Shown: positions 1,196 to 62,936 of the stretch, piece by piece
How positions within the stretch are numbered: the first letter of the stretch is position 1
How the letters are laid out: the number at the start of each line of letters is the position of its first letter
NCBI GenBank assembly: GCA_964016885.1
Contig: OZ024743.1
Coordinates: 109,740,001-109,804,000 of the forward strand
Origin: Eledone cirrhosa
Lineage: Eukaryota
DNA: 64,000 nucleotides
Direction: 5' to 3'
The notes under the pieces: model-generated
What the model was told of the DNA's origin: nothing
What the model saw: the letters and a program-made list of their open reading frames with translations, nothing else
The model's database searches: none
Program-made: the position numbers and the translations under genes

Positions 1196-2632
1196 GTGAC
1201 GTTTGAGGGAGACACCCCGCACATACACATACCCCCACTAGTAAGAGAAATGACACAGAAAAAAAAGCTAATTTACAGAACAGTTGACATCATTACCAAA
1301 AAACCCATAACGCTCCCAACAAGCACTATCGAAGCTGCACTAAAATACGTCAAGCCAGACGTGGCATACATCCAAAGAGGTAAACAGTATAGAAGTGTGT
1401 CAGTGCTCTTTAAGAGCAAAATTCTGGCACAACAACACTCGGTTCACCCAATAAAAACGGATCAACACATCTTCCCCACGTACATGGGAAGATGATCCTA
1501 CAAAATAAAAATAACCAGGATCCCAGCAGAGGTCAACATGTGGTCGATCCTACGCTGCATCCTGAAGAAGGATGAGGACACCCTCTTATCTGTAGACAGG
1601 ACAGATCGCCATAACTGGCTTGGAACCTGCATTGAGGTTCTGGTACAAAGGAGGCCAGAGAGAGTTGAGAAAATACTGGACATGATCGTGCTTGAGGAAG
1701 ATGTCATCTCCATTTTAGTGGAGCGGAAAATACCTCAGTGCCATAAGTGTGGGAAAACCACACACTTAAAAGCCATTTGCCCTCTCTTAAACAAACCGAG
1801 GACAAACAAGGTGTTATTACCAACACCAACACCAAAACCCCAACATCAACACTCCCAACCAAACACAACACAAACACCTGCAACATCCACTCCCACATCA
1901 CCAGAGACCAGAGACAACCACACACACAAAATAACACTAAAAAACCCTCCATTACCCCACCCACCCCTGTCAAATACTTCCAAAAATACCTGCACAAACA
2001 CTCCACCACACAACATACCGCTCCCATCTACCCATGATTCAGAAGTCTCAGACACGGGAGCTTCTATATCTCCAAGTGAGAATGAAGAGGAACCCCAAAA
2101 ATCCAAAAAACAAAAAAAGACACTAGAAAGACACAAAATCATCTGCAGAAAACACGCACACACTCAACCCCACCATAAACACACCGCCACAAACGACAAA
2201 CACACCAACAACACAATCACCACCAACACAACCAAACATTTCACCAACAAAACAAACACCACACCACCACAATCACAAACACCAACCACAAAAAGAAAAC
2301 TACAAACAGAAACAGTACACATAAAAAACAAAACACACTACACATACATAAAAACAAAAAACAAAGAACTGGTGGAAACTGTCCGAAAGGACCTCACACT
2401 ACAAACGGAAGGGAAAACCTTCCCCACCAACGACCCACACCCAAACCTCAAACTTATCAGGGTAACAACCCTACAGTATGAAACTTTAAAAGAGAACTTC
2501 CCACATGATGTGGGCCCCCCTTGCCAAAAGCCCCTTAACCGTGTCCTGCTAAAAGGATTCCCTACCTCCCCCAAAACCACCAATCTGGACAGGGAGATCG
2601 AACAACCCGACCTCCAGGAAACGAAAAGTTAA
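1196..2632 (+). pseudogene. Tx1 ORF1 (gag-like, CCHC zinc knuckle, Thr/Pro-rich linker), disrupted
   Basis: CHKCGKTTHLKAIC knuckle; homologous to 12938-13542 (PMYMGRR; CHLCGARDHVRAAC). Confidence 0.8.
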
Positions 2633-2671
2633 GTGTTCCCCCTTTTCTCTCCTTAACTCTTCTTCACCAAC

Positions 2672-5206
2672 ATGGCGACTATACAAGCTGGATATTTGAA
2701 TGTACGTGGCCTTGGAATGTCCTGGAAACAAGGCTAGCTTTTAAATGATCTCAGGTCACATTGTATAGATGTGATAGCCATTACCAAGTCCAGGATTCAC
2801 AACAAGCAGCAGCTAACCCCTATTTTCGATGATTTTTAGATCTACACATCTTTCTGTAGGCCAGGGGTGGGGTGGGGAGTTGCTGTTCTGTTTCGGAAAA
2901 ACTTGGATCTCAAAATACAGACGATTCACTTGGACCCGGAGGCCAGCCTCGTGGTCCTGGACGAGAATGATAGTGAAGCTGGAGCTTTCATACTGGTGGC
3001 CGTATATGCCCCGACTGGTCCATCGCGACCAGAGATCTTCAAGCGTGTGGAGCCATTCCTGGAAACGTCTCGCTCCTTAGTGTTAGTGGTGGACTGGAAT
3101 GGCATCTTAGACGCACGTTGGGAATATGTAGGAGCTTGTGATAATAGAGGGTGGTGTAATAGCCTCAACAATCTCATCAGCAAATTCCAACTGGCTGATA
3201 GATATCGACTAGACTTCCCAATTGCACCACTGTGGACATGGAGCAAGCGCACTGGGTCTTCTAGACCGTATTTAGATAGATTTTTAATTAGACAGAATGA
3301 TAAGGAAACATTAAGCTGTCCACAAATGCACATGGTTGACTATTCAGACAACAAATAAGTCACCTACGTAGTCTACCTAGATAGAACACATAGACAGGGA
3401 CCCTTATACTGGAAGTTAAACATGTCGCTCCCAGCACGTAAGGCCTACAGTAAACGGATTACCACCTTAGTTAAGTGCCAGTTGACGGGGGCGATCGTCA
3501 ACAGCAGATGGTGGAGCTCTCTCTCGAGAGCAATTAGAATAGAATCGATAGCATTTAGCAAGGAAGTAGCTAGCCTTAGAAAAAAACAAAACTAAAAATG
3601 AACTGGTAGCTAAAATAGAAGAGGCACTTAGGAATGGCAGTACAGCTGACGTGCTAGCGGCGAGAACGGCACTAGAACTGGTCTAGTAAAACTGGTTCAA
3701 CCTGAAACACGAAGGTTGTATTGTCAGAAGTAGAGCACGTGCCCTAAGAAACGAGGGAGACAAAGCTGTTAGCTGGGCCCGAGTGGCAGAGGCGAAAAGT
3801 GGCAACAAATCCACAATTCGGTGTTTGCAAGACAAAGATGGACGCATTATACTTGAATCCAAGATATGTGAGCGGATTCCAGCAGCAATTTGCACAACTG
3901 TTCGGGCAAAGCGGTACATCGTGCGAGGTGATGGACTTCAGCTCCTACCTCCACGGCGTACCGCGACTCTCGAGCACGGATGCGGAGAGCTGCGAAATGC
4001 CGATCACATCGGCGGGGGGGGGGGGAATAAAAGATGCCCTAGGCCGCTGCTGGAAACGCAAATCACCCAGTTTAGAGGGTCTACCCTATGAGTTTTACAT
4101 AGGCATGCCAGACTTGTTCTCTGGCGTCCTCAAAGCGGTCTACTGAAACTGGCAGCAGAACGGGAGGATTCCCAGTTCTAGAGGCAAGAGCGTAGTAACG
4201 CTGATCAGGAAAGATGAGAACAAGGGGGATGAGATAAGCAATTTCAGGTCCATAACTCTGCTCAAAACAGAGTTAAAGATTTTGGCGAAGCTGTTAGCAG
4301 CAATGCTGGCGCTTGTCGTCGAGAAGCTGGTAGGGGAAGCCCAAACGTGTGCAATCCCGACCAGGTCCATTCACGACAACCTCCACCTCATGCGATACAT
4401 CATAGAGAGGGTAGGGTGTAAACCTGGCTTTGGTCGAGCTCTGATAAATTTAGATCAATCTAAAGCATTTGATAGGGTCGACTTGGAAGCAGTTCTCAAG
4501 GCGGCCGGCTTCGGTCCTGTCTTCAGAGGCTGGACCGGTGCCATGCACACCAGCATCTGCTCGGCAGTCAAGGTGAATGGCTACCTATCAGAGCCATTCA
4601 AAATCATGCGTTCCATCCGTCAGGGATGCCCTCCTCCTCCATTCTGTATGTACTGACTCTCGAGCCTTACTGCGGAAATTGTTGCAGGGCATCCCGGTCG
4701 AACCAGGAATGCGGAAAGCAGCGTCAGCGTATGCCGACGACATAACCGTAATGGTGTCGAAACCTCGGAAATCAGGGTAACCGCCAATCTATTACAGGAA
4801 TACGAAACGTTGACAGGAGCGAGGCTAAACCCAAACAAGTCTGTCGGTTTGCAACTCGGCACATGGAGAGGTAAACCCATGCCTTCCGACAGTGTCGTTG
4901 GACGTTGGACGGAAGGACCCGTGAAATTGCTCGGGGTCTGGTTCGGTCCAGACCTCCAGGTGGACAAGAACTGGAACAAGGTCACGGCGAAGTTGTTTGC
5001 ACTCACCCAGAAGTGGACTGAGTGCAAACTCTCTTGAAAGGTCGAGCGGAGGTGACAAACACTTACATAGCGCCCGTCATCTACTACCGCTTCGCAGTCG
5101 TATCTTGCCCCCGCGAATACCTTACCAAAATGGAACGCCTACTCTTCAAGTTCCTCTGGAAGAAACAGGCTCCATTGGTGAGGAGATCCATCTGCTGTCA
5201 ACACCC
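2672..5206 (+). pseudogene. Tx1 ORF2 (AP endonuclease + reverse transcriptase), several stops and frameshifts
   Basis: MATIQAGYLNVRGL, VAVYAP, DWN, YLDRFL, YSD (APE); SPSLEGLPYEFY, NFRSITLL, LDQSKAFDRV, IRQGCP, AYADD (RT). Confidence 0.92.
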
Positions 5207-6711: not shown

Positions 6712-6742
<31 letters not shown>

Positions 6743-6963
6743 CAATTAAGTTAAAAATGTACATCCATATATGTATACTGAAATACTAGTATGCATATGA
6801 ATACACACACGTATACATATGTAGATTACCAAGTCTTTCACTGGTTACTTTACAGTGAGTATCCAGCTATTCTGTATGTAAACACACAGACAAACCGGTT
6901 TTTAGAGTCATACTGGTTTTTGAGGAAACACCTTTCCTCTATTCTCCAGAAAGCCAGACAAGG

Positions 6964-7008
6964 AATATTGAACTAGTTTCGTTGTTGTTACAACTCATCA
7001 GCAATATT
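6964..7008 (-). ncRNA. Minimal type I hammerhead ribozyme (unit 1)
   Basis: Minus strand: AATATTG-CTGATGA-GTTGT aaca ACAAC-GAAA-CTAG-TT^CAATATT. Confidence 0.9.
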
Positions 7009-7429
7009 TACCTCTCTACCGGCCTTTCTGGAGAATCGTTAAAGAACATATCGTTATATGCTTTTTCTATGAAAATTAGTAGTGGGCAGACTAATTTGCA
7101 TAGAGTGTGAGTACGTACCGGTTCAACGGAGACGATAAAAACAAATAACGAAACGAAATTAAATTTCGTTTCGTTTGAAACTCACTTTTGTATGACTGAC
7201 GCTTAAACAATTAAGTTAAAAATATACATCCATATATGTATACTGAAATACTAGTATGCATATGAATACACACACGTATACATATGTAGATGTACCAAGT
7301 CTTTCACTGGTTACTTTACTGTGAGTATCCAGCTATTCTGTATGTAAACACACAGACAAACCGGTTTTTAGAGTCATACTGGTTTTTGAGGAAACACCTT
7401 TCCTCTATTCTCCAGAAAGCCAGACAAGG

Positions 7430-7474
7430 AATATTGAACTAGTTTCGTTGTTGTTACAACTCATCAGCAATATT
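7430..7474 (-). ncRNA. Minimal type I hammerhead ribozyme (unit 2)
   Basis: Identical to 6964-7008. Confidence 0.9.
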
Positions 7475-7895
7475 TACCTCTCTACCGGCCTTTCTGGAGA
7501 ATCGTAAAAGCACATATCGTTATATGCTTTTTCTATGAAAATTAGTATTGGGCAGACTAATTTGCATAGAGTGTGAGTACGTACCTGTTCAACGGAGACG
7601 ATAAAAACAAATAACGAAACGAAATTAAATTTCGTTTCGTTTGTAACTCACTTTTGTATGACTGACGCTTAAACAATTAAGTTAAAAATGTACATCCATA
7701 TATGTATACTGAAATACTAGTATGCATATGAATACACACACGTATACATATGTAGATGTACCAAGTCTTTCACTGGTTACTTTACTGTGAGTATCCAGCT
7801 ATTCTGTATGTAAACACACAGACAAACCGGTTTTTAGAGTCATACTGGTTTTTGAGGAAACACCTTTCCTCTATTCTCCAGAAAGCCAGACAAGG

Positions 7896-7940
7896 AATAT
7901 TGAACTAGTTTCGTTGTTGTTACAACTCATCAGCAATATT
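7896..7940 (-). ncRNA. Minimal type I hammerhead ribozyme (unit 3)
   Basis: Identical to 6964-7008. Confidence 0.9.
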
Positions 7941-8586
7941 TACCTCTCTACCGGCCTTTCTGGAGAATCGTAAAGGCACATATCGTTATATGCTTTTTCT
8001 ATGAAAATTAGTAGTGGGCAGACTAATTTGCATAGAGTGTGAGTAGGTACCGGTTCAACGGAGACGATAAAAACAAATAACGAAACGAAATTAAATTTCG
8101 TTTCGTTTGTAACTCACTTTTGTATGACTGACGCTTAAACAATTAAGTTAAAAATATACATCCATATATGTATACTGAAATACTAGTATGCATATGAATA
8201 CACACACGTATACATATGTATATGTACATCTACATATGTATACGTGTGTGTATTCATATGCATACTAGTATTTCAGTATACATATGTGGATGTACATTTT
8301 TAACTTAATTGTTTAAGCGTCAGTCATACAAAAGTGAGTTTCAAACGAAACGAAATGTTTACATACAGAATAGCTGGATACTCACAGTAAAGTAACCAGT
8401 GAAAGACTTGGTACATCTACATATGTATACGTGTGTGTATTCATATGCATACTAGTATTTCAGTATACATATATGGATGTACATTTTTAACTTAATTGTT
8501 TAAGCGTCAGTCATACAAAAGTGAGTTACAAACGAAACGAAATTTAATTTCGTTTCGTTATTTGTTTTTATATATATATATATATA

Positions 8587-9376: not shown

Positions 9377-9443
9377 TATGTTATTACGCATATTTCAGAG
9401 GTACTGGGTTTAGTTCAACAGTACGTCCTCATCAGATAAAATA
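9377..9443 (-). ncRNA. Type I hammerhead ribozyme (GAAATAT family)
   Basis: Minus: TATTTTAT-CTGATGA-GGACGTACTG..CAGTACCTCT-GAAA-TATGCG-TA^ATAACATA; paralog at 61689. Confidence 0.72.
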
Positions 9444-9601
9444 AGATAATGCATGACATACCCTGACATAGTAGATGGTTAAGATTCAGTCATAATTATT
9501 TGATGTATTCATTGAACCTTGTTTAAATTTTAAATATATATATATATATATATATATTAGTTTAGCGAGGTTTTTTTATATGAAATCGTGTGTCGAAACA
9601 G

Positions 9602-9992
9602 ATATTGTTATACTTGGGGAGGGTCATATTTGCGTAATATTGCCAGAATTAATAACAGAACACACTCACTGTTTGGTTGGTTTTCGCTTCTCGCTGTCTT
9701 TTATATCTGCGATCTAACTTACTCGGTCCTCAATGTTGCCATTGACTGACAGACGGTCAAAAATAATACAGATACAATATAGACACAAACACATGTAAAC
9801 TATATATATGTGTTTGTGTCTATATTGTATCTGTATTATTTTTGACCGTCGGTCAGTCAATGGCAACATTGAGGACCAAGTAAGTTAGATCGCAGATATA
9901 AAAGACAGCGAGAAGCGAAAACCAACCAAACAGTGAGTGTGTTCTGTTATTAATTCTGGCAATATTACGCAAATATGACCCTCCCCAAGTAT

Positions 9993-10000
<8 letters not shown>
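9602..10000. repeat. Near-perfect ~190-bp-arm palindrome (fold-back element)
   Basis: 9602-9794 is the reverse complement of 9808-10000 with only a few mismatches. Confidence 0.92.
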
Positions 10001-10031
<31 letters not shown>

Positions 10032-12170: not shown

Positions 12171-16258
<4,088 letters not shown>

Positions 16259-17233: not shown

Positions 17234-18408
17234 GATGGGTACAAAAGTCGCTCCAACTTATGCCAACTCATTCATGGCATACTTGGAAGTCCAGATATAT
17301 GAACAGTCCAAATCAAAATACGAATTGAACTTCCCCAAATATTTATCAGAGATTTGGAAACGCTACTTTATGATTGTCTCATTCTTTGGTCTCACACACA
17401 CGATTAACTAAATGATATCAAACATTTAATTAACGGCATCAATAACCACACCCAATTCTCAATGGAATATAACGAAAATCAACTCCTCTTTCTGGACATC
17501 TTAATCATAAAAAAGTCACAAATATTGAAAGTGACATACACAACAAACCAACAGATTCCAAACAATACCTGCTATTCACCTCCAACCATCCAAAGCACAC
17601 GAAGATAAACATCACTTTTAATCTAGCAAGAAGAATTTGCACAATTGTCTCCAATTATGAAACGCGAATAATAGACTTCAAGAATTAAAGAAAATTCTAC
17701 TCGAAAGACAGTACCCACCATTACTAATAAATAAGGGAATAGAAAGGGCTAAAGTATTAGGCATTGACGAATTACGAAAACAGAAACAAATTCAAGGTAC
17801 GTCCAATATTCTATCATATGTCTCAACACAACCCAGGAAATGCGGAAGCTTACAACACTATTCACAACATCCCACTATTGAAACAAGACCTAAGAATGAA
17901 AAAAGCCCTTGAAGCACACACAATAATCAAAAGCAAAAGACAACCAAAATCACTGAAAACATTACTCACCAATGCCAAATTACCTACCACAAACAAACAA
18001 CCAACTGTCAAAAAATGTGGTCGCTCCAATTGTGGAATCTGCACTCACCTCATTGAAGGTAACACGTATACATTTGAATCAGGACAAAATTTTGCTGTAA
18101 AAAATCACTTCACTTGCTCATCAAAAAATCTAGTTCATGCCATTAGATGTAAAGGATGCAATGAAGATTATATAGGACAAACTAACCTCACACTCAGAAA
18201 CAGAATGACAGTTCATCGCCAACAATTACGAGATCCGACCACTAGACAGTTACCACTAAGTGCACAACTAGACATATGCGCAAGTAATAAGACACCCAAA
18301 TTCCAAGTCTTCCCATATTATGTTTTCGCTGACAATACATCAGAACAAATACGAATAAATTAGGAAAATATGTTTATTAAAAAATATAGACCAGCATTAA
18401 ATATAGTT
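17234..18408 (+). pseudogene. PLE RT C-terminal half + GIY-YIG endonuclease, frameshifted
   Basis: ORFs 17139-17411 and 17764-18363; homologous to 50595-51894. Confidence 0.88.
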
Positions 18409-22354: not shown

Positions 22355-22405
22355 AGTTTCAGAAGATCCCGTTAAGTGTGAAAGCAGCGATTCTATGCTT
22401 AAACT
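22355..22405 (+). ncRNA. Variant type I HHR in pLTR (core CAGAAGA)
   Basis: AGTTT-CAGAAGA-TCCC gttaa G(T/G)GT-GAAA-GCA..TGC-TT^AAACT; copies at 24956-25006 (+) and 10046-10095 (-). Confidence 0.55.
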
Positions 22406-22558
22406 TTAATCTGTTATTTTAATAAATATTTGTTCTACGGTTCTTATATATTTGATATATATTTATCCTTATCGCGCCCTCTTTGTGTTTTAGTCTTCAA
22501 ATTTATTATTATATCTATTTGGCTCCTTCGGTCGAGGACTCTATTGACTTATATCATC

Positions 22559-24778
22559 ATGCAGAAACACAATCTGAATATTTCTACAAAGAACATACCC
22601 GTACCAAGCAAGAAAACCTACCTAAAACTCCTGATACAGAAAACAGACTCGTTCATTAAAAGGTTGCGTTGGCGTGCCATTTATTTCGATAATCAGGGAA
22701 AAGCAGACATCAAACAGGATGAACTTTGGTTTAAAATCAGTAACTACCCTCCGAGTAACCCAGCATTGCTCCCCTTCGAAAATGACTTGGAACTGATACA
22801 GAGTGTCGAATTTCGGAATAGGAGCAATTCCTTCCTGCAGGACCTGGAGAATAGAATTCGGTCTATTAAGGAGTCTAATGCCGTGCACGTCCACTCCGAC
22901 AAAACTGGCAAACTATATGAAGTGGAGCGCAGTACTTACCATCAACTGCTACATAATGCTGTAACAAAGGATTACCGTAAAACTAATCGGAGCTCAAGGG
23001 CGGTGGATTGGCAGTATCGGTAGAGGGTCGGACGCCATGCTTTCCAGCATAGTTACGTCCCTTTACGATCTGAGTTCAAATCCCGCCGAGGTTGACTTTG
23101 CCTTTCATCCTTACGGGGTCGATAAAATAAAGTACCTATAATGCACTGGCTAATTGCTGGCCTTGTGCCTAAAGTAGAAACAATTAATGATATCAACGAT
23201 GCTGGGTTTAAAATCACCTCTGATCTCAACATCCTGGACCGGTCTGAACCTCCGGACCCTATTTCTCCCCACTTTACACTGAAAGATTACAAATCCAATT
23301 TCCCTAACAACCCTCTATTCGGCTTATTAATCCTACGAAGTCCGATTTAGGTAGACTTAGTAAAGGGATTTTAGATAGAATTATACCTGAAATTAGAAAT
23401 TTGGCACCTCTTGCACTGTGGACCAATTCTTCCGCGGTGATCGATTGGTTCAACGGCATATGCAACAAGGAACATTGCTGTTTTATCCAATTCGACAACA
23501 ATAATTACTACTCCTCCATCACTTTACCACTTCTCCTTAGAGCTATCAATTTCGCTAAATCCCTCACAGTGGTTAAAGATTTCGAAGTTGTTGTCATCCT
23601 CAATGCCCGTAAGTCGGTGATTAATTTCGTCGACTATATTTGGATTACAAAATACAATAGTACCCAATTCGACGTGAGTATGGGCGCCAGCGATTCTGCG
23701 GAGGTTACTGATCTTATCGGCCTTTTCCTTCTTTTCTCTATCAAGGAAGAATTCCCCAACGGGGGCGGTGGTTTGTACCGTGATGACGGTCTTTTGACCA
23801 TGACAAAGTGCGGCTCACGTGCTTGCGACAGTTTCAGAAAAGAACTCACAGCCTTCTTTAGAGGCTTCAAACATTCTGAATGATACGCTTAATTACATCA
23901 GTAAGCATTCTAACCATCCTGTCAGCATAACCAAGAACCTGGTAAGAAAGGTTTCTTTGAGGCTTTCCCCTCTATCTACTAACGAGCATATTTTCAACGA
24001 CCATTCCACATATTACAATGAAGCTCTTGCTGGGAGTGGATTTGTCGATAAGGGAGCATACACAGAGTACGAGAATAGGCCTATGAAAAATAGACGCGAC
24101 GCATTATATGGTATAACTAACCATATAATATGGAGGTGGCCATACCATTAGCTAAGACCTTTTTCTCCCTTATTATGAAGCATTTCCCCCCAGCACATAA
24201 ATATAGTAAACATTTTAATAGAAATAACATTAAAATGTCTTACTCTACGACTCTTAACTTTGCACATAACATCACAGCTTCAAATTTAGCTAAACTACCT
24301 ATCCGTAGGAACGCATGCAACCCTGTAGCTAGTACTAACTGTAATTGTAGGAATTGGGTTGACTGCCCTCTATCCGGGAATTGTATGTTTAGTAAAATTG
24401 TCTACAAATGTAAGGTTGAAACATCCACACACCGTAGGACCTACATAGGGTTAACCGCCAATAGATTCAAGCAGCATCTTTACATGCATACGCATTTTTT
24501 CTTAACCCTTTAAACAGGAATATGACGTCACTTTCAGTTTATATCTGGAGTCTAAAGACTACCACACCCAATGTAAGTTACACTTGGAGATCCTAAATAG
24601 GGCTAGATCGTATAACGGAAATAAAAGACCATGTGACCTCTGCGCCGCTGAGACCCTGGAAATACTCTACGCCAAAGACAACATCTTAAACAAAAAATCT
24701 GAGGCAATTTTGTCTTGTAAACATAAATTGCACAAAGCATTCCTGTATTACAGTCCCACATTACACCCTAACGGATAG
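22559..24778 (+). pseudogene. PLE RT-GIY-YIG ORF disrupted by a SINE insertion, frameshifts and an internal deletion near 23870
   Basis: Consecutive ORF fragments 22430-24778; paralog 36208-37452 has the segment missing here. Confidence 0.88.
22999..23185 (+). mobile_element. tRNA-derived SINE nested in the PLE ORF
   Basis: Near-identical to 45394-45580; A box TGGCAGTATCGG, B box GAGTTCAAATCC. Confidence 0.9.
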
Positions 24779-25386: not shown

Positions 25387-25447
25387 TATTGTATTATATA
25401 TATTTCATGGGTAACAATACTTTCGTACCCTCTCATCAGATAAAATA
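25387..25447 (-). ncRNA. Type I HHR (GAAATAT family)
   Basis: Minus: TATTTTAT-CTGATGA-gaGGGTA..TACCCat-GAAA-TATATA-TA^ATACAATA. Confidence 0.7.
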
Positions 25448-25539
25448 CAAAATGTATTTTATAAATAGTGACACACCTAGGAATCAGACCTTAACGGTTC
25501 AAGTTCCGGAACTTGAACCGGAACATTTATTATAATGTT

Positions 25540-25910
<371 letters not shown>

Positions 25911-26002: not shown

Positions 26003-26043
26003 GTGTGTTAACGTTTCGTACGCTAGTCCTTCATCAGAATAAA
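26003..26043 (-). ncRNA. Minimal HHR-like core
   Basis: Minus: TATT-CTGATGA-aGGAC tagc GTAC-GAAACGTT-AACAC; decayed paralog at about 34897-34931 (+). Confidence 0.5.
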
Positions 26044-26094: not shown

Positions 26095-26174
<80 letters not shown>

Positions 26175-26300
26175 CCATATATATATTAATATATATATAT
26201 ACACATATATATATATATAAATATATATATGTATATATATATAGATATGATATATATATATATATATATATGTATATATTTATGATATATGTATATATAT

Positions 26301-26417
26301 ATAAGTTGAAATAAAATGAAAACGAAATTTCATTTCTCACTCTTAGTACGGCACTTACTTAAATGTAAGTATGAGTGTATACGTACATACATATATGTAT
26401 ACAGACGTACAGTAGCA

Positions 26418-26463
<46 letters not shown>

Positions 26464-26810
26464 TACATACAGGTACACATACATATATGCACGTATCAGT
26501 TTAGCGGACGCTTATTATAACGCCGCTTTGTTCATTTGTAAACAAACTGAACAGCCTGAATGTTATGCCGTACGGTGTTAAGGCAACCACGTCACCTTTT
26601 TGTTCAACACTGACACAGGAACGATGTACTAGTTTCAAGCTTGTTAGCTATCATCAGCACCGTATACCCATCTGCCAGATAGTTGAACGTTCGAAAGTAT
26701 ATACTTTCCTTATGAAAATTAACGGCTGAGCAGCCTAATTTGCATACCGAGTGAGTTATGTCGGTCAGGCATACCGAGACCGATAAGTTGAAATAAAATG
26801 AAAACGAAAT
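26301..26810 (-). mobile_element. Single 482-bp retrozyme-like monomer with 28-bp terminal redundancy
   Basis: ATAAGTTGAAATAAAATGAAAACGAAAT at 26301 and 26783; contains HHR and octamer; distantly related to the 466-bp repeat. Confidence 0.82.
26621..26663 (-). ncRNA. Minimal type I hammerhead ribozyme
   Basis: Minus: ACGGTG-CTGATGA-tAGCT aaca AGCTt-GAAA-CTAG-TA^CATCGT. Confidence 0.85.
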
Positions 26811-26881
26811 ATATATGCTATATATATGATATATCATATATGATATATATATGATATATAAATATATGATATATAAATATA

Positions 26882-26939
<58 letters not shown>

Positions 26940-27996
26940 GTTTACATATATATATATACATACACATACATATACGTGTTTTGCAACATATATTTTATCT
27001 GGTGATTCTATAGACATGTTTTATGATATATATATATATATATATATTAGAATTAGTATATTGGCTCTAATATAGATGTATACATACGTGCAAATGTATG
27101 TGAAATTCGTATAATATACCATATGTATACGAAAACATATTTGGCAGATTTAGCAATGACTGTTTAATGTTATGACTGAGGTCATCTACCTTCCTCCAAC
27201 AGAAGCAGGGAGAAGCAACCGACAGCGCAGTTTCTGGCCATTTTCCGTTTGCCTGCTGCTGCAACCCACCCTAGCCCCCCTTGCCACTCAAATAAGATAA
27301 ACATATATAGCTTTTCTGTTCATATATATGTGCTGATTAGCCGCATTTGCATATGGAAATTTAGGATTGCTCAGCTTGATTAAGAATTAGAATTACGTTT
27401 TCACTCCAATTGAAACTTCACACGCACGCACACACTGACAAGTACACACACACACACACGCGCATATGCACCCCCCACACACACATATATATGTATATAT
27501 ATATATACGTATGTATATATGTGTGTTTATTTGTGTAGATTTTACGAACCACTTACATCAATACCTACCATTCCCTATTCCACAATGCTTTATGCAACTT
27601 GTAACGCTATTCAGTAAGTGGGTTATTTACTGCAGGATATGTTGTATTACCGATACCTTGAATATTTCAATTAGTACAACAGTTTGTTATTCGAACTATT
27701 GAAGATACGGAATTTCAGGAAATTACAGTGTATTATACTGTGTTTATATTTCTCTCATCATATTAAAACACAATATGAGTGGGAACATTTGAAATTTAGA
27801 GTAAATGATGTTTGAAAAGCAAGAAAGCAAGATTTAAAGATTTATTCGATGAAGTGTCAACCGTAATGTTTATTCGCGTTTAAAGTACGTTAATATCGCC
27901 AGTGGGAAGTTGAAGGGTAAACATTAAACCTTGTCTTATTCTTCGTTCAGCACAAATACAACATTGCAGACATGGTTTTATTATGAGCAATATGCA

Positions 27997-35083: not shown

Positions 35084-35146
<63 letters not shown>

Positions 35147-35149
35147 AAA

Positions 35150-35514
35150 ATAATGAAATGAGATTTCATTTCTCACTCTTAGTACGGCTCATACTTAAAT
35201 GTAAGGATGTATACGTACATACATATACGTATACATACGTACAGTAGCATGTATATATATACATGCATGCACATATATATATATATATATATATGTACGT
35301 ACGTGTTTACCGAACATTTATTATAATATTTGGGTTGTTTGTAGACAAACAGCCCGAATTAAGTCGTACAGTGTTCGGCAACCATCGTCGCCCTTTTGAG
35401 CGACGATGGTTGCCCGTTTGGGCAACGATTGTTGCCGAACACTGTACGGCTTAATTCGGGCTGTTTGTTTACAAACAAAATGAACATTATAATAAATGTT
35501 TGGTAAACCCATAC

Positions 35515-35579
<65 letters not shown>

Positions 35580-35645
35580 CATGTATGTATCTATATACAC
35601 AGTACTGTACGCCTGTATACATATATGTATGTACGTATACATACT

Positions 35646-35650
<5 letters not shown>
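35150..35650. repeat. Fold-back of two partial units of the 26301 family
   Basis: About 35296-35392 is inverted against 35424-35520, with nested short palindromes at the centre. Confidence 0.8.
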
Positions 35651-35713
<63 letters not shown>

Positions 35714-35826: not shown

Positions 35827-35891
35827 TAGTTTGTCTGATGAAGGCATACTATAATGTAACTTGGTATCCTTGAAATATATATAATGAAATA
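35827..35891 (+). ncRNA. Type I HHR (GAAATAT family), weak stem I
   Basis: CTGATGA-AGGcATAC..GTATCCTT-GAAA-TATATA-TA; flanks homologous to 25350-25460 in reverse. Confidence 0.6.
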
Positions 35892-35958: not shown

Positions 35959-37650
35959 ATTTCGTATCTCCAAAGAAAACGGTTTTAGGAAGCCGTAGCT
36001 ATGCAAACACCGGGGGTTAACGCCTCCTGTTTTCACCAGCAGAAGCAAGGGGGACAACCGTCTCTGCATTTTAGGCATAACTGGCCATCGTAAGGAGAGT
36101 CCCTCCCACCGCTTGCTAGACTAGAAGATAGGCGAGAATATACAGTTTTCTCGTCTGTATAAATGAGGTGATTAATCTCATTTGCATATGAAGCTGCATC
36201 AGTTGGCTCAACTTATAATAAAAAAGAAATAGCATTTCGTTTCAAGCATACCTGTATACAATTTGTATAAATATTTCGTATCTCCAAAGAAATACGGTTT
36301 TAGGATAGTTGGGTATAATGTGGGGCTGTAATCCAGGAAAGTTTTGTGCAATTTATGTTTACAAGCCGAAATTGCCTCAGAATTTTTGTTTAATATGTGG
36401 TCTTTGGCGTAGCGTATTTCCACGGCTTCAGCAGCGCAGAGGATCTCCCAGTGTAACTTATGTTGGGTGTGGTAGTCTTTTAGACTCCAGATATAAGCTG
36501 AAAGTGACGTTATATACCTTCTTAAAGGTTTAAGAAAAGAATGGGTATGTATGTAAAGACGTTGCTTGAATCTATTGGCGGTTAGCCCTATGTAGGCCCT
36601 ACCGGACATCGGTGTTTCAACCTTACATTTGTAGACAATGTTACTAGAGAGGCATTTCCCGGATAGGGGGCAGTCAACGCGGTTCCTACAATTACAGTTA
36701 GTACTAGCTACAGGGCTGCACGTGTTCCTACGGCTAGGTAATTTAGCTAAATTTGAAGCTGTGATGTTATGTGAAACGTTAGGAGTCGTAGAGTAAGACA
36801 TTTTAATGGTATTTCTATTAAAAGTTTTACTATATTTATGTGCTGGGGGGAAATGCTTCATAATAAGGGAGAGAAAGAACTTAGCTAATGGTTTGGTCAC
36901 CTCCATATTATATGGTGGGTTATACCATATAATGCGTCGGTATCTATTTTTCCTTGGTATATTCTCGTACTCTGTATAAGCTACCTTATCGACAAATCCA
37001 CTCCGAGCAAGTGTTTCATTGTAATATGTGGAATGGTCGTTGAAAATATGCTCGTTTGTAGATAGACGAGAAAGCCTCAAAGAAACGTTTCTTACCAGGT
37101 TCTTGGTTATGCTGGAAGGATGGTTAGGATGCTTACTTATGTAATTAAGCGTGTCATTCGGCTTTCTATAGGGGTAGTGAATACCATTCGAAACATTGAG
37201 GGTAACGTCTAGGTAATTAACGACCGAGAGGTTGGCCTCAACCTTTATGGAGAGGTTGTAGCCTTTAAAGAATGCTGGGAGTTCTTTTATGAAGCTGTCA
37301 CAAGCACATGGGCCGCACTTTGCCATGGTCAAAAGACCGTCATCACGGTACGAACCACCGCCCACGTTTGGGAATCCTTCCTTGATAGAGAAAAGAAGGA
37401 AAAGGCAGATAGGATCAGTAACCTCCGCAGAAACGCTGGCGACCATACTCACGTCTAATGGGGGTACTATTAGATTTTTTTATCCAAATAGATTCGTCGA
37501 AATTAATTACCGACTTACGGGCATTGAGGATGACATCATCTTCAAAATCCTTAACCTCTGTGAGTCTTTTAGCGAAATTGATAGCTCTAAGAATAAGTTA
37601 AGGGTGAAAGCAGCGATTATTTGCTTAAACTTTAATCTGTTATTTTAATA

Positions 37651-42823: not shown

Positions 42824-43538
42824 CATACATATGTGTGTATGATGCATGCATATGTCTGTGCGTGAGTAGACAATATATTTATGTTAAAATCTAGCCTACG
42901 ATGTGGAGTGAAAGTAATATGCGTAAATAACGTGCCGGCATTTTAAACCTTTAAAATGTAACATTTTATCTAATTTTCATTTACTTGCCATAATTCATAT
43001 ATGGGTATCGACACACCGATCCCGCATTTAATGACGTTAATTTCAATTGATCTTCCCACATCAAAGTCAATCCCTAATTAATTCATTTGCTCTCTACACC
43101 AAATATTTGATCGTATTGCTGCGCATTAATTTTGTGCTAAATTATATACCATAAATTATCACATGTATCATATATATCGAAATATGACCTCAACGTCATC
43201 TGCGCGCACACATATAATGATATTAACGTGTATGTAGGTGTATGAATACACGCACATATTTATTCCCATCTATACATGCATATAATATATATATATATAT
43301 TTGCGTTTTCATATATTGCTTTACTGAGATAATTCTTTATTGATAATCCAATTTTCGCGATTTCCCTCTGATCACGAAACTTATATAAAATAATAAATTC
43401 AAGATTTTCTCTACTTTGATATAAGCGTGATTGTGAACCCATATAACTTTGATATGTGAACTTTGATATAAGCATGATTGTGAACCATACTTATGTTTCT
43501 GGGTTTAACCCTTCATCAGTTGGCAGGTGAACGGTAAG

Positions 43539-49590: not shown

Positions 49591-52040
<2,450 letters not shown>

Positions 52041-52710
52041 GTGGGTACAGGTGTGTATGTGTAGATATAGATATGTATGGATATGTGTAAATATGATTAT
52101 GTGCACATGTGTAAATGTGTATTTAGTTTTGCATCCATTTGTGCGTATGTATATTTATGGTTGGATATCAATATAATTGTACCTCTCTCTATATATAGTG
52201 TGGATATATGCACTTTGTAATCTATGAAATGTATATGTTTTAACTATGCCAACATGTATTTATCTTAGTTTGATTATTTATACATAAACATACTTGATAG
52301 TATTTTAGAGCGTATCATATGCTGTATTATACACCGTACTATATTGTGTTGGTTATGTTGTATAATATCGCATTACTGCATTTAATTATCTTATTATAAT
52401 TTGCATCTTTTAATATACTATCTTTCCTAGGCATAACCTTAATCTATATTCAGCTTAAAACTCAATACAACACGAATCACCATTTACTTTTACATTCCTT
52501 TTAAACTTCACTATACCAGATACATTCAACTATCAGTTTTTGACAATCCCTTTCCTCCTAATTGATTGTTATGCCAATTCTACTATTAACACCATTCAAC
52601 TATTCCTTTCAAAGGTCATGACCTCCACTAATGTGTATTACTTTTCATCTTAACACCATATGAAAAAAACAATTTGATTGGTTAGTTCTTCAACTACCTC
52701 CAAATAAGGA

Positions 52711-54760
52711 CATGAGAAAATATGTCTATACGTAAATGTGGCAGATAGATGTTATCTTCTGTTAGAACTGGTCTTTGTGTGTGTATGTGTTTGTGAGAGA
52801 GAATAAGTGGAGGTGTAAGCGTGTGTGTGTGTGTGTTGTGTGCGTGCGTGTGTGCGTGTCTGTGTGTGGGTGTGTGTAAATATGGGGCTAGAAGCTATAT
52901 GAAGCTATAAATTGGGTGTTGAGGTCTATTATTGATTGGTGGTTGTGTTATGTCTATAATTAGTGTTTCCTTAATTCTAAGATTGCCGAGATTTCTTTCC
53001 TTAGTTTCTATCCTAACTGTTATGGCTTTGTCGGTGTTTTTTCATTTAACTAGGTGTTTCTTAAATGAGCAAGCGATAGTATTGAGGTGTACTTTTATTC
53101 TTATGTGGAGTGGTCTGGTGGTGCTACCTACGTAGAAGTTGCTGCATTTGTCACACTCTGGTCTGTATACGAGGTAAGCCTGGTGACATACGTCTGTGTT
53201 GTTGATTTGGCAGTTGGCTAACCTGCAGCAGTTGTCATGTCTGGTGGAGTGTCTTTTGGTTAGCTGTCCACGTAGAGAAGGGCCTGAGTGGGCCAGTTGG
53301 ATATCTAGTCCCTCTCGTCTGATAGCCCTGCATATGGCTGTTGTTGTTTCGTCACTGAAGTGTCGGAGCTTCAGGAAGCAAGTGTTAGTGCCTCGGGTGT
53401 GGTGTCCTCCGTTCTTTCTGGCACGGTTTGTGGTGGATGTCGTGTATCCGTTCAGTTTGAGTACTTCCAGGAAATGTGTGGTGTATGTGTCTCGGTCTCT
53501 AGCGTCAATGCATTTGTTCCGGATACGTGTTATTCGTTCCTTCTGTATCCGAACTTAGCGCCGGCTGGGAGGGCCGATCTGAAATGTACGAACAGGTCCC
53601 TGCTGGCGGCTTTTTTATAGAAGCAGGTGTGGATGTTGCCTTCCTCTGTTACCCTGAGTTGGAAGTCCAGTAGGGATAGGGATCCGCGGTCATCGAGGTG
53701 TTCAAGCTGAACTTTATACTGGCATCCATGCTTGAGAATATATTTTATCTGCCTCCTCACGGGATGATGTAAGGATGAGTATGTCTTCTACATATTGGGT
53801 GAAGAAGGTATGGGAATGACAGGTGTTGAAGGCCCGGCATTCTAGCTGGTTCATATAGGTGATGGCCAGTAGGCCCGATAGGTTGAATCCCATGGGTAAT
53901 CCTGTTGTCTGTCTGTATGTGTGGTGGTGGAAGGTGAAGTACGTGTTGTCTACTGTGAAGGACAAAAGCTGGTGTATGTCCGTCGGATGGAGGCCGTAGC
54001 AGTGGATCTCCTCTGCGACCACGCAGTCCGTCAATAAATCGACAGCTGGATGAGCGGGCACTGTAGTGTAGAGGGAGACAACGTCGAGGCTAAAGGCGTA
54101 TCTATTTAGTTTAAGTTGTTCTGGCTGGAGTTGGTGTAGTCTACGTATAACTTCGTCGGAGCTACTGACATGCCAGGGAAAGGTGGAGAGTAGAGGCTTG
54201 AGGACCTGGGAGAGGAGCCAAGAAATTTTGTATAGGGGTCCTTGATAGAGCTTTTAGCCCCGTATTTACACCCCGCCCCCACACACACACGCACACAAAC
54301 ACCCCCCCCACACACACGCTTACACCTCCACTTATTTTCTCTCATACACACACATACACACACAAAGACCAGTTCTAACATGAGATAACATCTATCCCCC
54401 ACATTTACGTATAGACATATCTTCTCACACTCACACCCACACACTCACATACCTACACCTTCATGCATTCTCCCACACACTTAAACAGGCATGTACAAAA
54501 CAAACCCTTTTAAAGTGAGACTACTCTTTATCCACCTAACCTTAACACTTTGACATTAGAGATAGAACAGATACTCTATACCATTTCCTGTCAGCATGAC
54601 TTTTCAAGCTATTTAGAACACTGGTTTAACCGCTTCTACTTCCTTCCGAAGAAGAGATATTATCTCGAAAATAAGGACATTTAAATAAATCTAAGGTAAA
54701 AGACTAATTGTCAACAATATCTTTTGCATTTGGATTCTTTATTGTATGTCCATATCTGCA
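52711..54760 (-). mobile_element. 5'-truncated PLE of a third family, with an inverted copy of its 3' region
   Basis: SLDVVSLYT, YRQTTGLPMG, YVED, LDF, FYVGSTTRPLHIRI; 52713-52925 is inverted against 54235-54426. Confidence 0.88.
54641..54677 (+). ncRNA. Degenerate minimal HHR in the inverted PLE 3' region
   Basis: TCCTT-CCGAAGA-aGAGAT att ATCTC-GAAA-AT-AAGGA; U4C and stem III shortened. Confidence 0.45.
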
Positions 54761-59872: not shown

Positions 59873-61900
59873 TCAAAATATTAACAAAATAGATATTCTT
59901 GAACAAGAGAAACACATATAATACATACAATAATGCTATAATTGTAGTTTTACCTCCAGTTCAGTGGAGCGAGAGACCAATATTTGTCGACTATTATGGT
60001 TTGTTATATTTATATTTAGATATATATAAAATATATAAGTGCAAATCTAACTTTCTGAGTCCCCAAAACATACCCAAAAATGAGTAAAATATGCAAATGC
60101 ATGAATGATCTACAGTTCAATTATAACCGGTAAATTTACAAGTTAAATATCCAAATTATATATATAAAACAGAGACAGATAAATAAATGTGTTGGGGACC
60201 AGAAAGTTAGATTTGCACTTATATATTTTATATATATCTAGGTATAAATATAACAACCCATAATAGTCGACACATATTGGTCTCACTCTCCATAGAACTG
60301 GAGGTAAAACTACAATTATAGCATTACTAATAATGATTATAATTATTTATTTATTAAATGTATATCGTTTCATTAATACCTATGATAATATCGCTATATA
60401 GTTGTACAAATATGTTTATCTAGTGTAATAACATTATCGTAGTTACATTTATAAATAATTTAGATACTCAAATTACTCTCTATTGTTATAAGTGTTAGAT
60501 ATTCTCTGGAAGTTCGAATTTATATAATGATTATTACTTAATTTAATATTATTTAGCTCCTCTTCTATCACATTCGATGGATATTTTAGAAGTATCTTTT
60601 GTCTACTATATATTAAGACCCTATTACATTTTATACTATATTTTTGAATATTGGGCATTTTTAAGTTTCGCAAACAATTCATTATTTTTCACTTGTTATC
60701 TTTATATTTATTTTGTATCTATCCCCTATCCTTAGGAATCATGTAGTTTTGACTTATATAGTTATAGTATATATCAACTAAATGACCATTTCACAATAAT
60801 TGATATAAAACATTAATTTTTAACAATATTTTTTAACAGTATTTTCAGTAACTTTTTTACTATATTGTATTATTGTATTATGTTATATATATATTTGAAA
60901 GGTATCACCTTAAGTCTTTAGACATTATAATCTTACTGTATTTTTTGATTAACACATATATATATAATAAAAAATTCAGACTTCTTTAAGTTTAATTATA
61001 AGGCACTCAAACTGTAAATCATAAATTCTTTAATAATTATAACTATAATTATTTTATAAATTATATTATATAAACTGTTATCAATATTATAAATAATTTT
61101 GGTAAGGATTACCTCGTGAGGGTATAAAAGCATTATATATTTTCTTTCTAGTGTTTCGTAAATTCTTTAAATTTGATTTCATAACATTTGAATTTTAGAA
61201 ATTAAACTTCATAGTATAATATAATATTAATACAGATACCTATTAACTTTTAAAACCTAAAATATTACTCATTACTCTGAAATAACTTAAATTAAATATT
61301 TTGAATATTAACGGTCAACCAAATAAGTTTCAGCTATATATTGCATATATGGATAATTGTCTATTAACTTGAACATAAATTATTACCTTTTGTCTTTCTC
61401 TCTCTTTTTAATCATCTCTCATTTATTTTATTTTTCGAGGCGCCTACTAACTATAATATCCCATCAGCTGTTTATTCCTCTATGCTTTCCTTTCTTTTCT
61501 CTTTTTTCAGTAGTTTAAAAAAAAATTGATTACTGTTATATTGATGCCATGTATTTTTTAAGCTGTATTACACATTTATTGTTTTATATGTGTTTCTCAT
61601 GTTCGCAATATTATAACTATTGAGTTTTATCATATATTACTCACTACCATCACTGAATCGTAACCATCTACTATGTCATGCATCATCTTATTTTATCTGA
61701 TGAGGACGTACTGTTGAACTTAACTCAGTACCTCTGAAATATGTATAATAAAATATACTTGATCACAAGAATATCTATTTTTTTAATAATTTGAATTAAA
61801 ATTAATAACTCTGGAAAACCTTTTTAACTTTTGAGTGCATCCAATCTATTGTAAAACTCATTCTTTGATATATTCATTGAACCTTGTTTAACTTTTAAAT
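59870..61900. mobile_element. Highly decayed PLE-derived element with internal inverted repeat and HHR
   Basis: 59933-60072 is inverted against 60188-60327; minus-strand KYPSNVIEEELNNI (PLE thumb-like); ends homologous to 9352-9535. Confidence 0.5.
61689..61755 (+). ncRNA. Type I HHR (GAAATAT family)
   Basis: TATTTTAT-CTGATGA-GGACGTACTG..CAGTACCTCT-GAAA-TATGTA-TA^ATAAAATA. Confidence 0.78.
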
Positions 61901-62870: not shown

Positions 62871-62936
62871 TATTTTATCTGATGAGGGCGTGCTGAAAAA
62901 ACAGTACAGTATCTCCGAAATATATATAATAAAACA
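62871..62936 (+). ncRNA. Type I HHR (GAAATAT family)
   Basis: TTTTAT-CTGATGA-GGGcGTGCTG..CAGTATCTCC-GAAA-TATATA-TA^ATAAAA. Confidence 0.72.

Follow-up and report, generated by a model that had tools for sequence, protein, structure and literature searches.

Non-LTR retrozymes of metazoans, described from coral, mussel and axolotl and including newt satellite 2 (Cervera and de la Pena 2020, PMC7229834), are reported to be low-GC, non-coding tandem units that each carry one type I hammerhead with a short palindromic helix III, reach thousands of copies and share their genomes with Penelope-like elements (PLEs). That PLEs help retrozymes to spread was suggested there from co-occurrence, and a PLE origin or link has been proposed from terminal homology in Xenopus (bioRxiv 10.64898/2026.07.22.740005). 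Among the PLEs, tandem and inverted insertions, an optional tail and a bias toward (TA)n are known (PMC8557442). A PLE has been reported to extend both target strands, with two internal reverse transcription (RT) start sites that bound the tail (PMC11167929). Non-autonomous, head-to-tail, PLE-dependent repeats have been described as Chlamys MRC1 (PMC8557442) and as pLTR-related retrozymes of Xenopus (bioRxiv 10.64898/2026.07.22.740005).

Here we analyze an insertion at positions 26301-26810 of a 64-kb stretch of the Eledone cirrhosa genome (the window) that resembles each of these systems. Like the retrozymes of PMC7229834, its family, which we call family B, consists of low-GC non-coding tandem units with one type I hammerhead per unit, a short palindromic helix III and thousands of copies in a genome that contains PLEs. 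It differs from them in having an internal microsatellite, in being known here from DNA sequence, and in lying in (TA)n, where a target duplication is not resolvable. Its 482-bp unit exceeds the ~170-400 nt of the circles reported in PMC7229834 and falls within the 51-972 bp given in bioRxiv 10.64898/2026.07.22.740005. The fixed twin 3' ends and inverted arms described below are unmentioned for retrozymes in the available text of PMC7229834. In these respects family B resembles EN+ PLEs (Poseidon PAc, PMC11167929; Neptune, Naiad and Chlamys, PMC8557442), which are reported with partial tandems, 5' truncation, an inverted 5'-truncated copy, an optional tail at one end and AT-rich or (TA)n targets. 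Unlike those elements, however, it has no open reading frame (ORF), and its tail is about 57-68 nt rather than the published 30-40 bp; its hammerhead is of the full canonical type, whereas the PLE hammerhead is reported as minimal (PMC4209133). Like MRC1 and the Xenopus retrozymes, it appears non-autonomous, head-to-tail and PLE-dependent.

Judged by the sequence features that we tested, family B looks like a non-LTR retrozyme that inserts in the manner of a non-autonomous PLE. We consider it very probable that 26301-26810 is a 5'-truncated retrozyme copy whose insertion into (TA)n was likely performed in trans by a PLE reverse transcriptase with its GIY-YIG nuclease. The element class and its link to PLEs have already been described; what is unusual in family B is how readable the route of spread is, as the insertion footprints of some ten thousand young copies themselves fit PLE chemistry and candidate helpers occur intact in the same genome. 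We found no description of families A-F or of the strict end pairing reported below in the literature searched, a scope that left aside subscription papers, Repbase/Dfam and supplements, and an earlier annotation as PLE or satellite is quite possible.

The insertion at 26301-26810 and its family

The insertion comprises one full family-B unit of 482 bp (26301-26782), whose RNA sense is the minus strand, and a 28-nt stub of the next unit (26783-26810, minus strand). An exact 28-bp direct repeat starts at 26301 and again at 26783, a spacing of 482 bp, and the flanks are (TA)n-rich on both sides (left, 26098-26300; right, 26811-26974; the TA-rich stretches themselves run 26098-26303 and 26809-26974), which confirms the initial annotation of one unit plus a 28-bp terminal repeat embedded in (TA)n. 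We read the stub as the variable point of 5' truncation of the cDNA; the copy is an arm that begins at the outer end E1 and is truncated 28 nt into its second unit. An optional tail with a predicted terminal hairpin occupies 26301-26359 on the minus strand, from E1 (26301) to an inner end, E2 (about 26360). It is followed by a TA/TG microsatellite-like segment (26362-26495) whose length varies between copies, a type I hammerhead with an extended stem I (26609-26678, minus strand; core 26621-26663), and an imperfect inverted repeat (26711-26746, minus strand). The unit contains no ORF of at least 120 aa, and one low-complexity frame overlaps it. Its predicted fold has a z score of -8.9 against 100 dinucleotide shuffles, to which the internal AU repeat contributes.

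Far from being a lone divergent monomer, as it had been taken to be, this copy belongs to a young and very large family, of which it is typical. The exact 43-nt family-B ribozyme has 9,990 matches in the 3.0-Gb, AT- and microsatellite-rich assembly, and a motif common to families A and B has 17,388; the control gave 0 in each case. In a DNA search with the family-B unit, identity was 98-100% in the best 40 of 1,662 candidates. Family-B copies are dispersed, short and non-coding, lack LTRs, and range from single units through short tandems to arrays exceeding 20 units. The previously listed motif GAGAC(C)GATAA needs one correction, as the GAGACC spelling is private to the copy at 26301-26810 (one of 34 listed family-B junction strings).

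The motif order said to be common to the 482-bp unit and a 466-bp unit elsewhere in the window was borne out. The two units are identical at 287 of 508 columns in a global alignment (56.5%), and their alignment scores 277, whereas none of 200 letter shuffles scored above 153; the 466-bp family (family A) is homologous to the 482-bp unit. Its insertion in the window (6742-8571; locus L031) runs for 3.2 units from E2 and continues into an inverted arm that ends at E1. Two relatives from family C are also present in the window, one 5'-truncated and inverted with its ribozyme lost (35140-35657), the other truncated (approximately 25431-25794, plus strand). Genome-wide, further relatives comprise A2, C, D, an older family E and a 310-bp family F. 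Family F is a hammerhead repeat with an ACGCGU palindrome, found inverted in (TA)n and lacking the octamer discussed below (L184:6560-7560; L077-L078).

Long satellite-like arrays are formed by family A 466-bp units (G000:C1:5738423-5751969) and by family C-type 442-bp units (L190-L191; G000:C2 near 383.0 Mb). Spaced matches on C2 proved to be this 442-bp array together with an unrelated repeat (L188-189). A pattern search for additional families returned C/D variants and chance matches, and a second one gave 16 matches, mostly point variants of A (of eight inspected, four were A variants and four were unrelated).

A conserved hammerhead fold

In the family-B hammerhead, read on the minus strand, stem I (26663-26658 with 26626-26621) encloses CUGAUGA (26657-26651), stem II (26650-26637) and GAAACUAGU (26636-26628), and the predicted cut falls between 26627 and 26626. 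Each unit carries a type I hammerhead with an intact core, a feature of retrozymes. The base of stem II is a U·U, its loop is UAACAA, and helix III is the palindrome ACUAGU. The Rfam model Hammerhead_HH9 (RF02275) matches the 26301-26810 copy below threshold, at 18.6 bits (E 0.044; gathering score 52), and the 466-bp copies at 34.7 bits, also below the gathering score; Rfam miRNA matches were microsatellite artefacts. A natural U·U variant is reported among retrozyme hammerheads, and the family-B U·U matches that of axolotl HHR_Amex2 (PMC7229834). A helix III that stays palindromic while its center changes, as described below, is the pattern expected of hammerheads that work as dimers (PMC4209133, PMC7229834). 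As cleavage was reported for just one of nine predicted elements assayed in bioRxiv 10.64898/2026.07.22.740005, activity of the family-B hammerhead should not be assumed.

The initial annotation had read the differences between the 482-bp and 466-bp units as compensatory changes around a GUA cleavage site. In stem I, pairing is indeed kept overall, with one change yielding a G·U. In stem II, the first pair is U·U in family B and G-C in the 466-bp family, which is a break rather than a compensation. The cleavage triplet is GUA in the 482-bp unit, as stated, but GUU in the 466-bp family.

The broader claim of selection on ribozyme structure is supported by pairing kept both among A-D variants and across four deep lineages. 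Among 14 A-D variants, 92.9% of cells pair, compared with 37-46% in slid controls; two-sided change occurs in 8 of 19 pairs, a count that 188 of 500 shuffles match and that, in these related rows, is no excess. When lineages A1, B, E and F were compared through one representative each, 9 of 10 variable pairs stayed paired, a result equaled by none of 200,000 column permutations. Among the variable pairs, pairing fails only at the base of stem II, where the four lineages have G-C, U·U, A·A and U·U, respectively. Helix III is a six-base palindrome in every lineage although its center varies (ACUAGU, ACAUGU, ACGCGU), a change of the kind that a dimeric hammerhead would require. The covariation shows selection on the fold between families, and cleavage by the 26301-26810 copy is a separate matter. 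That mutations are sparser in the ribozyme core (0.47% versus 1.08%) was dropped as evidence because the loci had been selected by ribozyme.

One arm of the imperfect inverted repeat, ATGCAAAT (26738-26745, minus strand), is invariant: it is kept in families A-E and absent from F. Its hairpin partner is changed between A/B and C and lost in E, and this retention of the arm while the partner varies favors a sequence signal over an RNA stem. We take ATGCAAAT to be an octamer, an element that snRNA-type promoters use, and the arm is a possible internal promoter element. Newt satellite 2 has been reported with an snRNA-type promoter (PMC2220036).

Insertion ends and inverted arms

We tallied the ends of 117 distinct insertions (37 A, 34 B and 46 C/D) from which overlapping loci had been removed beforehand, 109 of them with both ends inside the locus. 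A second sample, 40 consecutive places on C1, gave 47 match clusters, some of which were spurious microsatellite matches. The ends on the RNA 3' side fall either at unit positions 1-9 (E1) or at E2, about 55-66 in families B and C and 64-74 in family A, where microhomology with TA makes the precise base ambiguous. E1 and E2 are thus two fixed RNA 3' end sites about 60-70 nt apart, that is, with the tail or without it. (TA)n adjoined 126 of 150 E1 or E2 ends in the main tally and 48 of 56 in the C1 sample; for 5' ends the figures were just 8 of 47 and 4 of 23. The 5' ends and the inversion points are scattered across the unit, with no enrichment at the ribozyme cut site (6 of 153, where 4.4 would be expected). 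A single family-A arm (L049:1183) starts exactly where the ribozyme is predicted to cut, as though synthesis had been primed on a 3' end left by cleavage.

Inverted insertions almost invariably joined one tailed and one tail-less arm. In the main tally, both ends could be classified in 50 inverted insertions, of which 49 paired E1 with E2, one paired E2 with E2, and none paired E1 with E1; the C1 sample gave E1 with E2 in 17 of 17, for a joint total of 66 of 67. Outside this total stand 14 inverted insertions with an unclassifiable end and 2 with two 5' ends in the main tally, and 7 unclassifiable ones in the C1 sample. Another 43 insertions of the main tally are one-armed.

These footprints combine a fixed 3' end with an optional tail, variable 5' truncation, an inverted 5' copy and an AT-rich or microsatellite target, the features of a non-autonomous PLE. 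The initial annotation had overlooked this Penelope-type anatomy of tail and inversion, as well as the prior description of the class as non-LTR retrozymes, and had treated the 28-bp redundancy as diagnostic. Stubs in six other copies, picked as short-stub cases, measure about 2, 25, 36, 48, 48 and 49 nt; since stub length is variable, the redundancy is incidental. The near-absolute pairing of tailed with tail-less arms, together with the single template lineage of both arms (below), constrains models of PLE integration.

Penelope-like elements in the genome

PLE fragments of four families lie within the window itself (17761-18363, 22403-24513, 36208-37479, 50595-52154 and 53042-54253). Intact PLE frames of 775, 777, 784 and 900 aa, with many genomic copies, were found in the assembly along with an older family of about 713 aa; Pfam recognizes RT in all four of the former and GIY-YIG in three of the four. 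We call the 784-, 775- and 777-aa families Neptune-like, a label given by the cysteine linker described in PMC8557442 and not by a tree. Each has two end sites in (TA)n, with a spacing of about 39, 66 and 70 nt, respectively. Of seven whole inverted insertions of autonomous PLEs, six are tail/no-tail pairs and the remaining one is tail-less at both ends. The intact PLEs of this genome show the retrozyme's insertion anatomy, in agreement with the PLE behavior reported in PMC11167929 and PMC8557442.

MRC1 and the Xenopus retrozymes are reported to share terminal sequence with autonomous families. Unlike them, the retrozyme has no such partner here, in that no clear terminal (pLTR) homology to it was seen in the five PLE families (784, 775, 777, 900 and about 713 aa). 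Among 3'-end comparisons, that of family C with the 775-aa PLE gave a score of 40 (p 0.007), a weak hint, and the other five were not significant. Inspection of the three Neptune-like families and the 900-aa family revealed no canonical hammerhead, nor did any of the five families share the retrozyme's own. The model matches at L184, L277, L289 and L296 represent independent insertions of retrozymes in the flanks, and a hammerhead first noticed near a PLE (L184, L185) belongs to another element.

Several features of the PLEs deserve mention in their own right. The three young Neptune-like families carry an upstream ORF of ~409-455 aa that overlaps the RT/GIY-YIG frame (L243:3353-6816, L181:6299-9900, L401:288-3814), and the single such ORF scanned had no Pfam match. 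The 3' UTR of the 775-aa PLE contains repeated motifs just upstream of the next tandem ORF (L225, L226, L229, L243), presumably CCAAT-, E-box- and E2F-like, and on sequence grounds these pseudo-LTR motifs look like a cell-cycle promoter. At L328 (about 2150-2350), the final ~135 nt of the 777-aa PLE, with the tail, directly abut a family-E arm; this single event, present three times, represents either a template switch or a nested insertion.

RNA template and proposed route of insertion

The initial annotation had postulated a tandem or circular RNA template, and this is supported by thousands of copies that run intact across the cleavage site; a read-through count of 129 of 153 arms is inflated by the queries, through the same kind of selection by ribozyme. 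Intact ribozymes are copied although priming lies 260-325 nt downstream of the cut, and the template should therefore be either a ligated circle or an uncut multimer. At polymorphic sites, which are linked, the two arms of an insertion agreed in 61 of 64 comparisons in family B (38.5 expected) and in 266 of 304 in C/D (181.6 expected). As the arms share subfamily variants far above random pairs, we conclude that both derive from one template lineage; fold-back copying or gene conversion would give equally concordant arms. Divergence was 1.32% between phase-matched arms (82/6229), 1.72% between unmatched arms (118/6842), 1.59% between adjacent units and 3.7% between insertions, and the slightly closer phase-matched arms lean away from a pure monomer circle.

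The covarying fold, two fixed 3' ends, scattered 5' ends, tailed/tail-less inverted pairs, concordant arms and the like anatomy of intact PLEs are the observations on which we base a model of PLE-mediated insertion. In this model, the minus strand would be transcribed from tandem arrays, pairs of hammerheads would cut the multimer via the palindromic helix III, and the monomers may be ligated into circles. A PLE protein would then nick both strands of (TA)n and prime internally, at E1 on one strand and at E2 on the other, on a template that keeps the ribozyme site intact, be it circular or an uncut multimer. Either the resulting two cDNAs would join at short microhomologies, or a single arm would be kept, as at 26301-26810.

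One version of this model, a sub-case and not an alternative to it, dispenses with the circle: mobilization would always proceed from an uncut tandem transcript, and the hammerhead would be selected for RNA turnover or for definition of the 5' end. We regard this version as a serious contender, at slightly under even weight. PLE insertion in vitro is reported to be indifferent to hammerhead mutants (PMC11167929), the phase effect between arms, though slight, is in the right direction, and arrays exceeding 20 units are present to serve as sources. Against it, adjacent units are barely more different from each other than opposite arms (1.59% versus 1.32%), and circles are reported to be abundant for the retrozymes of other animals (PMC7229834).

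It is very unlikely that a circular RNA was simply reverse-transcribed from arbitrary points, with no specific helper, into permuted, terminally redundant monomers. Such a process would account for one unit plus a stub at 26301-26810, for arms that cross the cleavage site and extend beyond one unit, and for a divergence within insertions about half of that between them. The circularly permuted starts that the initial annotation had raised were not seen, however; the RNA 3' ends occur at two fixed positions, stub length varies and the E1 with E2 pairing is strict, so that the end tallies already largely refute this reading. Also very unlikely is a DNA-level element, either a fold-back/MITE or a rolling-circle Helentron-type element with inverted ends as transposase signals and the hammerhead as passenger, for while long inverted ends, AT targets and an internal microsatellite are indeed seen in many insertions, these lack the symmetric fixed terminal inverted repeats (TIRs) and constant length of a MITE or TIR transposon, their arms being asymmetric with a tail on one side only, their inversion points and inner junctions variable across the unit, many copies one-armed, the polarity of 5' truncation in agreement with the ribozyme strand, and the ribozyme covarying.

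PLE-mediated insertion also admits a more tentative extension, which we hold to be possible but rather doubtful: that an old, independently evolving hammerhead circular RNA lineage (A-F) acts purely in trans as a parasite of Neptune-like PLEs that have no hammerhead, relying on a convergent U-rich 3' signal and not on shared ancestry. Families A-E would have their own octamer-type promoter, and all two-armed insertions would arise from a dimeric PLE enzyme that primes both strands on one RNA, once per tail end. If so, the integration mechanism of PLEs would be recorded in vivo in the strict tail/no-tail pairing. Family B also offers a compact substrate for testing trans-mobilization in vitro, which makes it useful for mechanism.

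Other repeats in the window

Other hammerhead-like motifs occur in short repeats of the window, at 9393-10029, 25421-25439, 26014-26037, 35835-35875, 43496-43519, 61697-61739 and 62879-62898; these are probably termini or derivatives of other PLEs. A long fold-back lies at 9573-10029. Decayed endonuclease/RT frames are present at 1496-5138 and 13899-15521, which we take to be from LINE-type retrotransposons.
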